In this document: positions 6,001 to 9,000 of the stretch, in pieces
Layout: each line of letters starts with the position of its first letter
How positions within the stretch are numbered: the first letter of the stretch is position 1
Source: Escherichia coli
Lineage (GTDB): Bacteria; Pseudomonadota; Gammaproteobacteria; Enterobacterales; Enterobacteriaceae
DNA length: 64,000 bases
Assembly (NCBI RefSeq): GCF_003018255.1
Contig: NZ_CP027440.1
Strand: one strand, 5' to 3'
Program-made: the position numbers

Positions 6001-9000
6001 AAAGAGCGTATTGATGCGTCAGCCCTGCGTACTGATGTCACGCAACTGGAAGAAGATATCCGCCAGCGACTGGAGACGGATGTTGCGGAAGTGACCCGAA
6101 AAATCGGGGAGGCGGAAAACAGCCTCACGCAGCTGGTTGCGAAAAAGAATGAGGACCAGACGCTGGCCATCGCGCAGGTGAGTCAGCAGGTGGACCGGGT
6201 GAGCAGTGAAATCACACAGACAGTCAGCCAGAGCACGGAGGAAAACGCCAGGCAGATAGCGCAGGTCCGCCAGTACGTGGATGACAAAGGGAGTGAAATC
6301 ACCTCGACCACGGATAAAAAGCTGGAAGACCAGAGCGCGACCATACAGCAGATACAGCAGGTCCAGTCAGACACGAATGATGAGCTGGCTGCGCTGTACA
6401 TGCTGAAGGTGCAGAAAACGAAAAACGGCATTCCGTATGTTGCCGGTATTGGTGCGGGGATTGAGGATGCTGATGGCCAGACGCTGAGCAATATTCTGCT
6501 GCAGGCGGACCGTATCGCAATGATTACCCCGGAGAACGGCAACACCACGCCGCTGTTTGTGGCACAGGGGAATCAGCTGTTCATGAACGACGTGTTCCTG
6601 AAGCGACTGTTTGCGGTGAGTATCACGTCATCCGGCAATCCCCCGACGTTTTCCCTGACGCCGGACGGCAGGCTGACGGCCCGCAATGCGGATATCAGCG
6701 GACATATCAGTGCGAACTCGGGCACGCTCAATAATGTCGTGATAGCGGAGAACTGTACGATAAATGGCACGCTGAAAGCGGAGAACATTATTGGTGATCT
6801 GGTGAAATGTGCAGGGGTGGCTTTTCCGGTGGATGGTAGTTACCTTGCGAACGGTACACGGACGCTGACGGTGTATGACGATCACAGCTTTGACCGGCAG
6901 ATTATAATCCCGCCGATAATCTATGTCGGGTCAAAACAGGAATCCCGCACCAGTAATGACATCTGGACAGAGTGCTTCCTGCATGTTGATCAGAACGGAC
7001 GCCGGATTTATTCAGGCAGGTCAGTGGCAGAGCCGGGAATTTTCAGCGGGATCATCGATATGCCAGCTGGCGGTGGTCATATCACCCTGAGTTTTACCGT
7101 GAGCTCACGGCGTCAGAATAACAGTTGGGGCAGTTCACGAATCAGTAACCTTCAGGCGATAGTGGTGAAGAAAAACAGCGCGGGGATCAGCATCCGCTGA
7201 ACATCGCGCCCCGGGATTGCCGGAAGGAGACAAAAACCGTACAGTATGCGCGGGTGCCTTTGGCTGATGGCCGGAGGGAACACCTGAAGGCCGGATGTGA
7301 AAAGGCCCCGGACAAAACATTCATGTTTAACCCGAGGCCTGACCATTCATCCTAAGCAAGTGAAAGGTTAGCGCCTCTCCGTAAAAGGAGCAAGCGTTAT
7401 GTCGCAAAAACCGTTAAAAACCACCGTGATTTGTATCACGGTAGTGCTCATTATCTGGATCACCCACACTTCACTGTGCGAGTTCCGGTTCCGGATAGCG
7501 GGCGCGGAGATTGCGGCGTTCTTACAGTGTAAGCGGTAAGAAACCGTGGCGGGGGAGTGTACCTTCCCCGCCGACCGGTTGCTGAGGGTGATCAGCCGGA
7601 TGGCACCTTTTTAACATCAATAAATCACAAATTTTACCGCAGGCCGGGAAACCGGTCCTGCGGTTTTTTTATGGAGGAAATCCATGGCAGTCAGAATATC
7701 GGGTGTGCTGAAGGACGGGGCCGGTAAGCCGGTACCGGGATGCACGATAGAGCTGAAAGCGCGACGCACAACGGAGACGGTGATTGTCACCACGGTGGCG
7801 TATGGTCAGCCGGGGGAAACCGGCAGTTACAGTATGGATGTTGAGCCGGGTCTGTACCGGGTGACGCTGAACACGGAAGGGTACGCGCCGTCATATGTGG
7901 GTGACATTCTGGTGAAGGCGGACTCTGCACCGGGAACGCTGAATAAATTTCTGATGGACCTGGAGGACGCACAGTATTACCCGAAAGCCCTTGCAGAGCT
8001 GGAAGCGGTGGCCGCGGAAATCCTGAAACGTGCGGAAGCGTCAGCGGCGAGTGCAGAGGAAGCGAAGAAACGGGCAGAGAATGCGCGGGGACCGAAGGGG
8101 GATAAGGGAGACACCGGGCCACAGGGTATTCCCGGGCCAAAAGGCGATACCGGCGAGCGTGGGCCAAAGGGTGAGCGTGGTGAGGCAGGCCCACAGGGGG
8201 TACAGGGGCCACGGGGTGAAACCGGACCCGTGGGACCGCAAGGAGAGGCGGGTATTCAGGGGCCTGCTGGTCCTGCGGGCCCGCGAGGTGAAACCGGAGC
8301 CAGAGGCGAAAAAGGAGAGCCGGGAGATCCCGGAGGACCTCCGGGACCAAAAGGTGACACTGGCCCCAGAGGGGAGCCGGGGCCTCAGGGCCCGGCAGGT
8401 CCGAGGGGACCTGCCGGAGAGAGAGGGCCGCAAGGATTGCAGGGTGTGGCAGGGGAGAGAGGCGATACAGGTCCGGCTGGCCCACAGGGTATACCTGGAC
8501 CTCCGGGGCCAACAGGTAGCGTCGGTCCTAAGGGGGAAAAAGGCGAGCCTGGTGATCGAGGTCCACAGGGTGCTACCGGCCCCAGAGGACCACAAGGGGA
8601 AAAAGGGGATAAAGGTGACCCCGGCCCGGCAGGCCCTGCCGGTGAGCGGGGGCCGAAAGGTGATACCGGGCCGACGGGCCCCGCAGGGAAGGATGGCGCA
8701 GATTCACAGGCGAACAGAGTGCGTATCAGCGAGAAAACAGAAGTCACCTCCAGCACAGTCGTTTTCCCCTCTTTTTATGGCGGTGCGCAGGGGGAAAATG
8801 CAGCCCCTGAGGGCGCTGTGATTCTGAATATCAGGACGGCTCCGGTATCACTGACGAACGGCAATTTAGGGGCAGCCTGTGTCACCGCTGTCACTTACGG
8901 CTTCCTTCAGGTTCATGATGGCAGCCAGTGGGTTACGGTGGAACATGAATAACATGATTTTTCCGGGTGCGGAAAGCTTAAACGGGTACCCCGTCCTGAA

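Follow-up and report, generated by a model that had tools for sequence, protein, structure and literature searches.

In the hok/sok (parB) system of plasmid R1 the antisense RNA Sok acts by blocking mok, and translation of mok up to the Shine-Dalgarno (SD) sequence of hok is mandatory for Hok synthesis (PMC9841398). Among prophage-borne relatives, hokW-sokW of Sp5 is a working toxin-antitoxin pair, dependent on both RNase III and Hfq, which speeds lysis after induction and doubles phage release (PMC8621323). A 2026 preprint has further catalogued, as clusters 72 and 79, peptides of the kind considered here, in a survey that explicitly placed mok and Sok outside its analysis (bioRxiv 10.1101/2025.08.07.668861). 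Here we describe a locus related to these systems in a stretch of 64,000 nucleotides from Escherichia coli (contig NZ_CP027440.1 of assembly GCF_003018255.1), hereafter the window, where a lambdoid prophage carries it in the gap that separates J, the tail-tip gene, from the side tail fibre gene (stf). We hold with high confidence that we are dealing with a complete type I toxin-antitoxin cassette of the hok/sok type, probably an active one, which constitutes a self-contained moron with its own promoter and terminator. It is of a known, already catalogued kind, and is unusual only in lacking mok, as do most of its relatives.

The only credible open reading frame (ORF) in the gap between J and stf is that of the toxin:

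7399-7539, plus strand: hok toxin gene, encoding 46 amino acids (aa) with a single predicted transmembrane helix; protein MSQKPLKTTVICITVVLIIWITHTSLCEFRFRIAGAEIAAFLQCKR

Residues 10-44 of this protein are matched by Pfam PF01848 (HOK_GEF) with E 6.5e-11, and the protein is also matched by PHROG 251 ('MokW-like host killing') with E 7.5e-21. It shares 39% identity over 33 residues with R1 Hok, including the SLCE..R..EvAAF core, and both the RefSeq entry for the identical protein (WP_000078855.1) and the product of identical DNA in at least 6 E. coli genomes bear the name 'Hok/Gef family protein'. Annotation as Hok/Gef extends to identical loci in 46 or more genomes of the species. The sequence-only reading of this DNA had proposed a 46-aa ORF with a Hok signature and one transmembrane helix, a proposal that these profile matches uphold; judged by them, the Hok match is not a chance one. 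The coding sequence appears to be maintained among its relatives, with the ratio of nonsynonymous to synonymous substitution rates (dN/dS) falling below 1 in 613 of 613 within-subfamily pairwise comparisons (median 0.27) and the 46-codon ORF retained in 58 of 61 relatives. Four peptides of the two catalogued clusters, namely 79_1563, 79_1555, 72_1589 (the Sp5 lom-adjacent type) and 72_1621, have been cloned, and none of them is among the 3 of 45 tested constructs that were non-toxic (bioRxiv 10.1101/2025.08.07.668861). As 79_1563 is only one residue apart from the window Hok (S24 versus T24 in the window), toxicity is reported for a near-identical variant of the latter.

The predicted hok transcript is bounded by the following elements:

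7217-7245, plus strand: hok promoter, read from sequence and homology (-35 TTGCCG at 7217-7222, 17-nt spacer, -10 TACAGT at 7240-7245)
7252-7671, plus strand: predicted full-length hok mRNA of about 420 nt, beginning with tac and ending in the U-run of the terminator
7636-7671, plus strand: intrinsic terminator, with a stem at 7636-7664 followed by U7 (-25.5 kcal/mol, z -4.8)

The -10 element aligns with the -10 boxes of hokC (TATAAT), hokW (TAGAAT) and hokB (TAGGAT), and its form, TAnAnT, is kept across about 30 unrelated insertion contexts. The 5' end of the mRNA is placed at about 7252 by alignment with position 1 of Rfam model RF01794 and with the 5' ends of the R1, hokC and hokW transcripts, and its 3' end is placed by the terminator, which ends 12 nt 5' of the start codon of the tail fibre gene. 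The resulting leader is 147 nt long (7252-7398), and the full length of RF01794 matches 7252-7410 on the plus strand with 51.1 bits (E 2.5e-10). Although this model is named 'sok antitoxin', its consensus extends from tac to the AUG of hok, and its matches therefore mark the sense hok leader rather than the Sok strand. The long structured leader and the downstream terminator proposed by the sequence-only reading are thus both recovered.

That reading had been able to place neither an antisense RNA nor a fold-back of the mRNA. Homology now places a Sok-like gene on the minus strand, cis-encoded at the sequence level opposite the hok leader, with a promoter that overlaps the hok SD:

7357 to 7295, minus strand: predicted Sok-like antisense RNA of about 63 nt, beginning with a single-stranded tail of 18 nt, which leads into a terminator hairpin (7340-7303) and then a U-run
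7365-7393, minus strand: sok promoter (-35 TTGCTC, reverse complement of 7388-7393; 17-nt spacer; -10 TAACCT, reverse complement of 7365-7370)

The annotated ends of both sokB and sokC of E. coli K-12 map to 7357 and 7295 (alignment A2), and the 63-nt RNA folds at -22 kcal/mol (z -2.5). The -10 hexamer TAACCT is invariant in 60 of 60 loci, with a constant spacer length, and the same hexamer stands at the same aligned position in sokW, where Takada et al. mutated it to make a promoter-less sokW (primer YO-421, PMC8621323). The stem of the predicted Sok hairpin pairs better when read on the antisense strand (86% of cells) than on the sense strand (72%), and the position of a U.G pair in Sok is a C.A mismatch in the mRNA; we used this overall strand difference, as a shift of one alignment column between clades obscures the pair counts of the individual hairpin columns. 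The 5' tail of Sok is the most variable segment of the locus, as expected if it serves as a specificity determinant.

We then considered the structure of the mRNA in a comparative analysis of 60 homologous loci (alignment A3). Two elements at the ends of the molecule, and a third that competes for the first of them, carry the conformational switch that is proposed here:

7252-7268, plus strand: tac (translational activator element) at the mRNA 5' end, which pairs either with fbi or with ucb
7591-7608, plus strand: fbi (fold-back inhibitory element), forming 17 pairs with 7252-7268 in the minimum free energy (MFE) fold
7300-7311, plus strand: ucb (upstream complementary box, anti-SD), AAAAGGCCCCGG, with tac or 7331-7340 as partner

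The MFE fold of 7251-7612 (-163.4 kcal/mol, z -7.24) is closed by the pairing of 7252-7268 with 7591-7608. Across the alignment 86.9% of the cells in this tac/fbi helix are paired, versus 35-55% once the partner is shifted by 1-3 columns; compensatory double changes (51 cells) affect 6 of its 17 pairs, and its covariation score is 0.255, against a maximum of 0.072 with a slid partner. The fold-back missing from the sequence-only reading is hence now placed with covariation support. In addition, the duplex of the 5' and 3' ends has an energy of -24 to -36 kcal/mol in 36 of 36 distinct combinations, compared with -17.6 +/- 3.6 kcal/mol for shuffled 3' ends. A comparison of cognate with non-cognate duplexes, tried as an alignment-free covariation test, was uninformative (-31.0 versus -30.1 kcal/mol) because most of the 5' ends are identical.

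The alternative pairing of the 5' end with 7300-7310 appears in the RNAalifold consensus, with a local fold of -31.3 kcal/mol. Here 97.6% of the cells are paired, versus 29-70% when the helix is slid, and 2 pairs show compensatory changes. The two pairings are further connected by a coupled three-way covariation: column 12 of the alignment together with columns 51 and 375 reads C/G/G in 42 sequences, and among the 18 sequences with G in column 12, 8 show G/C/C. Such coupling of tac, ucb and fbi is typical of the switch of the hok family. The ucb can also form a hairpin with a box further along the leader (CCGAGGCC), which folds at -16.0 kcal/mol. Three additional hairpins accompany these elements:

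7369-7399, plus strand: hok SD hairpin, sequestering the SD AAGGAG (7386-7391) together with the first base of the hok ATG (-12.6 kcal/mol)
7547-7573, plus strand: G+C-rich hairpin directly 3' of the hok stop codon (-20.9 kcal/mol)
7269-7293, plus strand: small conserved hairpin in the 5' domain, shared by the two MFE folds and the RNAalifold consensus

The outer helix of the SD hairpin belongs to the RNAalifold consensus (columns 124-129/150-156), with one-sided changes only, and the small 5' hairpin (columns 19-23/40-44 and 27-28/35-36) likewise shows mostly one-sided changes. The hairpin behind the stop codon displays compensatory changes in 13 sequences at columns 328/342 and in 9 at columns 329/341. 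By analogy with the final stem-loop of R1 hok mRNA in its truncated form (PMC9841398), it probably forms the 3' terminus, with a protective function, of the active mRNA left after processing. A 3-bp GCC/GGC hairpin at the 5' end, seen by eye, is a candidate metastable nascent hairpin. An 'anti-anti-SD' pairing of GGAGGG (7273-7278) with CCUCUCC (7374-7380) was also entertained and rejected, the G-to-A variants in L014, L015 and L113 being, by eye, uncompensated.

The feature that sets this locus apart, and which the sequence-only reading had not raised, is the absence of a canonical mok frame. Two elements of the leader bear on it:

7331-7340, plus strand: orphan 'mok SD' box, CCGAGGCC, with GAGG at 7334-7337 and no start codon behind it
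7297-7371, plus strand: upstream ORF of 24 codons in the hok frame, with a GTG start and a TAG stop, the stop lying 27 nt before the hok ATG

The orphan box aligns with the mok SD of R1, hokC and hokW, and its GAGG is conserved. The ATG positions of mokC and mokB correspond in the alignment to window positions 7349 and 7344, and no start codon is found at either. The frame one nucleotide ahead of hok, which we take to be the mok frame of R1, is open from 7356 and contains no ATG, GTG or TTG before 7431. Non-canonical mok starts at ATT 7345 and ATC 7349 were considered and rejected, as by eye they are absent in the relatives. In 37 of the 60 transcripts, those of the window and of 36 of the 59 others, the hok SD is not reached by an ORF in any of the frames, and the upstream ORFs that do occur in the leader are not conserved; hence a conserved mok is absent.

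Control might still be canonical if the ORF from GTG 7297 to TAG 7371, preceded by an SD-like GAAGG (7286-7290), were a displaced and shortened mok, in which case ribosomes passing along it would unfold the region targeted by Sok and, on stopping at the base of the hok SD hairpin, open that hairpin, and Sok would block the ORF start, which lies under the Sok 3' end. This would be in keeping with R1, where all that counts is that translation proceeds as far as the hok SD (PMC9841398). The ORF is open also in the Sp5 copy despite two 3-nt indels, most relatives have an ATG or GTG in the equivalent GATGTGG motif, their ORFs stopping 13-57 nt short of the hok ATG, and about 15 of the 60 relatives have an ORF of 60-92 codons that overlaps hok as a true mok would. 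However, across the 60 loci the counterpart ORFs range from 1 to 77 codons with shifting frame and stop position, and in nine loci the motif offers no start codon, among them L141 and L143, each of which is 91% identical to the window. The preponderance of transcripts without any ORF reaching the hok SD also speaks against this model, and by our own estimate an ORF of at least 19 codons would arise by chance in one of two frames with a likelihood of about 60%. We accordingly rejected the upstream ORF as a conserved displaced mok, its length, frame and presence varying freely; it is probably incidental, and control through it is unlikely.

Combining these elements with the R1 paradigm, we propose that in the lysogen the promoter at 7217-7245 would produce the mRNA of about 420 nt, which tac and fbi would lock in a compact, inert fold with the hok ribosome-binding site held in the 7369-7399 hairpin, as the covariation supports. 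Slow 3' trimming to the 7547-7573 hairpin, as known from R1, would remove fbi, upon which the 5' end would refold onto ucb, the alternative partner suggested by the covariation, and open the leader. By homology with R1 Sok and sokW, the short-lived Sok-like RNA would then pair with the opened leader and direct it to RNase III cleavage; were the supply of Sok to drop, the 46-aa Hok would be made, insert in the inner membrane and kill or lyse the cell. In the absence of a mok frame, translation of Hok would have to start at its own ribosome site or by way of a standby-type site in the Sok-target region. Three possibilities may be named for its activation: direct initiation during breathing of the hairpin, a standby site located in the Sok-target region, and control exerted by RNase III cleavage alone. 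More generally, we tentatively suggest, at rather less than even likelihood, that the prophage Hok clusters of the 46-aa 'MSQK...AAFLQCK' type, including the lom-adjacent locus of Shiga toxin (Stx) phages, form a mok-less regulatory variant of the family, in which the SD box serves as a structural partner or standby site, Sok blocks ribosome loading or acts via RNase III, and late transcription is the switch.

Several observations weigh against a complete and active cassette. As mok is mandatory in R1 and the hok SD is held in a hairpin of -12.6 kcal/mol, a copy without mok could be translationally silent. The protein scores below the cut-offs of both NCBIfam Hok models, with 36.8 bits against 73 for NF007279 (Hok family toxin) and 37.9 bits against 89 for NF007290 (HokA), which places it in a divergent branch of the family, and the leader match to RF01794 is similarly under its gathering threshold of 59 bits. 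Both promoters resemble the sigma-70 consensus poorly, and a promoter scan of the locus lists neither at its threshold of 9 matching consensus positions: the hok promoter matches 8 of 12 and the sok promoter 6 of 12. The latter is for this reason placed by homology, and the positions of both are best regarded as predictions from homology and conservation rather than from score. All the RNA ends of the locus are placed by alignment, and the single-sequence MFE fold of the truncated RNA (7251-7576) does not contain the tac/ucb stem.

Nevertheless, the reading of the cassette as an inactive relic that no longer makes toxin, like several chromosomal hok loci of K-12, appears very improbable. The missing mok and the sequestered SD would agree with decay, and visibly damaged relatives do occur: in L143 (969-1327) a 1-nt insertion frameshifts hok to 44 aa, L109 (10231-10568) has a 21-nt deletion in the 5' hairpin along with a GTG start codon, and L117 and L142 have lost the 5' end of tac through rearrangement. 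Against this stand the nearly universal retention of the 46-codon ORF under a dN/dS below 1 in all pairs, the conservation of promoter boxes, tac, ucb, fbi and SD with compensatory changes, and the toxicity of near-identical coding sequences when expressed (bioRxiv 10.1101/2025.08.07.668861).

The biological role of the cassette has to be viewed in light of its setting in the prophage. The interval 7201-7683, which the sequence-only reading had assigned to a Hok/Gef locus, turns out to be the exact and entire intergenic gap from the J stop codon (7198-7200) to the start of the following gene at 7684:

3463-7200: J, tail-tip gene, which precedes the hok gap
7684-8952, plus strand: tail fibre N-terminal-domain gene, with about 230 residues of unbroken collagen-like Gly-X-Y repeats

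Relatives were collected by scanning viral and genome collections with a conserved 22-mer and by tracing divergent proteins to their contigs (Salmonella, Serratia, Yersinia and Citrobacter). The resulting comparative set comprises 63 distinct loci, mainly from the viral collection, the scan of species-representative genomes having yielded only 4 matches. The nearest phage, 1720a-02, is 96.9% identical with the same J-hok-stf order, and next in line come Stx phages (Sp5/VT2-Sakai/933W group), whose DNA is 77% identical to the window over 7231-7607. Among 136 loci 12 lie after J, as in the window, 14 lie after lom, and the rest are found elsewhere in prophages, for example after ogr in a P2-like prophage, with prophage ends being frequent. 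Between unrelated contexts homology runs from the 'TTG' of the hok -35 to a few bases past fbi (window 7216-7612 against L010-L143), and it is this confinement that marks the unit as a mobile moron of about 400 bp. The terminators differ between contexts, each of which provides its own downstream terminator, and no recognizable repeats were found at the ends of the unit.

In the Stx phages the homologue sits immediately downstream of an intact lom. The locus had been read from the sequence as standing in place of lom; this holds for the position, and no Lom homologue is found in the whole window (tblastn with Sp5 Lom, best E 0.35). It does not hold as a replacement, since the same type of cassette adjoins an intact lom in the Stx phages, and the cassette is therefore better described as an independent moron. 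The two hok loci of these phages were noted at L002 3001-3375 (AP000363.1 44531-44905) and L006 9702-9914 (minus strand). The lom-adjacent copy is mok-less, was left unannotated in the 1999 VT2-Sakai record and is apparently unstudied. The hokW-sokW copy, with orf74, lies at 57.5 kb of VT2-Sakai. As hokW and the lom-adjacent hok lie at different coordinates, phages of the Sp5/933W type carry two types of hok.

The cassette is co-oriented with the late operon and sok is directed head-on against late transcription. Late transcription antiterminated by Q should therefore silence sok and titrate Sok, and the trigger that would best fit this placement is prophage induction. On these grounds a lysis aid at induction is the role we favour for this position, though tentatively and at somewhat less than even likelihood, as it is extrapolated from a different locus, hokW, whose product is only 41% identical to the window Hok over 34 residues. 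The sequence-only reading had suggested prophage maintenance or abortive infection; hokW-sokW, to date the one prophage hok locus to have been studied, acts instead in lysis after induction (PMC8621323). Prophage addiction by post-segregational killing, whereby loss of the prophage would leave stable hok mRNA without Sok and cause death, is the classical outcome when an inert but stable mRNA is activated slowly and opposed by a labile antisense RNA, an architecture whose elements are found here. The fourfold enrichment of hok genes in prophages (bioRxiv 10.1101/2025.08.07.668861) and the many different prophage positions of these cassettes, often at the ends, would also suit a selfish stabilizing cassette rather than a tail- or lysis-specific function. 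Yet deletion of hokW-sokW from Sp5 had no growth phenotype in uninduced cells (PMC8621323), a readout of growth, and on balance we consider addiction somewhat unlikely. There is less to be said for abortive infection or exclusion, in which an incoming lytic phage would shut down host transcription, Sok would cease to be made and Hok would kill the cell before the invader matures. Prophage morons often encode defence functions, and in 1996 Pecota and Wood reportedly found that R1 hok/sok reduced the growth of T4. PADLOC, on the other hand, returns no match for the cassette, and hok genes are not enriched near defence systems (bioRxiv 10.1101/2025.08.07.668861), which leaves exclusion a doubtful role.

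The surroundings of the cassette in the window offer a few further observations. A partial ompW pseudogene at about 11122-11247, annotated in near-identical genomes, is followed by yciE, yciF, yciG and the trp operon; the position of this fragment next to yciE/yciF/trp indicates that the prophage integrated in ompW and that about 11122-11247 is its right junction. At the right end of the prophage, an ORF6N-domain gene on the minus strand (about 10100-10660) is immediately preceded by two adjacent RNAs, a C4 antisense RNA (10713-10797, minus strand, 78.9 bits) and an isrK RNA (10825-10901, minus strand, 72.7 bits). This group looks like a c4-ant immunity or antirepressor module of the P1/P7 type. 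Well outside the prophage, a full-length match to the enterobacterial small RNA STnc180 is found at 33589-33791 on the plus strand (202.7 bits).

The gene call as such adds nothing new, the protein being named in RefSeq, included in PHROG, placed in cluster 79 of the survey and represented by a toxicity-tested one-residue variant. The wider significance is that in pathogenic E. coli the Stx-converting prophages and their lambdoid relatives harbour, beside hokW-sokW, a second and uncharacterized type of hok, which could affect the timing of lysis and therefore the release of phage and Shiga toxin. Furthermore, a branch without mok, an element mandatory in R1, offers a natural test of hok activation and of Sok control without translational coupling.

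A comparison with the described systems brings out both the common ground and the peculiarities of this locus. With R1 hok/sok it shares the Hok/Gef peptide, the tac/fbi fold-back, the alternative tac/ucb stem and the entire order of elements, namely promoter, tac, ucb, SD box, antisense promoter over the hok SD, hok, 3' hairpin, fbi and terminator. It also shares the form of Sok, about 60 nt with a 5' tail and a terminator hairpin opposite the leader (the paradigm of PMC9841398). R1 differs in that it is plasmid-borne, has mok and encodes a Hok of 52 aa, whereas the window copy, with 46 aa, lies in a prophage late operon and has no mok start behind its SD box. The hokB/sokB and hokC/sokC loci of K-12 align throughout the leader and share the Sok ends given above, but they have annotated mokB and mokC and lie in chromosomal islets rather than prophages. 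The lom gene of phage lambda fills the corresponding place after J and before the side tail fibre gene, and it too is a moron expressed in the lysogen; its product, in contrast, is an outer-membrane beta-barrel of about 200 aa without homology to the window cassette. In the type I system tisB/istR-1 the antisense RNA blocks a standby site, an upstream single-stranded stretch on which the structured ribosome site of the toxin mRNA depends. The resemblance to this system is one of mechanism and not of sequence, and standby loading, by which a hok leader without mok could remain under the control of Sok, is purely hypothetical for the window hok.

The two prophage systems of the Stx phages stand at different distances from the window copy. 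Like it, hokW-sokW is prophage-borne and has the TAACCT hexamer at the homologous sok position, but it occupies another locus on the other strand, at 57.5 kb of VT2-Sakai, its toxin is 51 aa long, and it has a mok-type N-terminal extension frame (orf74) that the window copy does not possess. None of the hokW primers match the lom-adjacent locus. By these comparisons the window locus is not an orthologue of hokW-sokW. The second hok locus of the Stx phages (Hok cluster 72), on the other hand, has the same order of elements, the same absence of mok and the same length of 46 aa, and differs in standing beside an intact lom in a short-tailed Stx phage rather than between J and stf, and in encoding a protein that is, by our own count, about 65% identical to that of the window.

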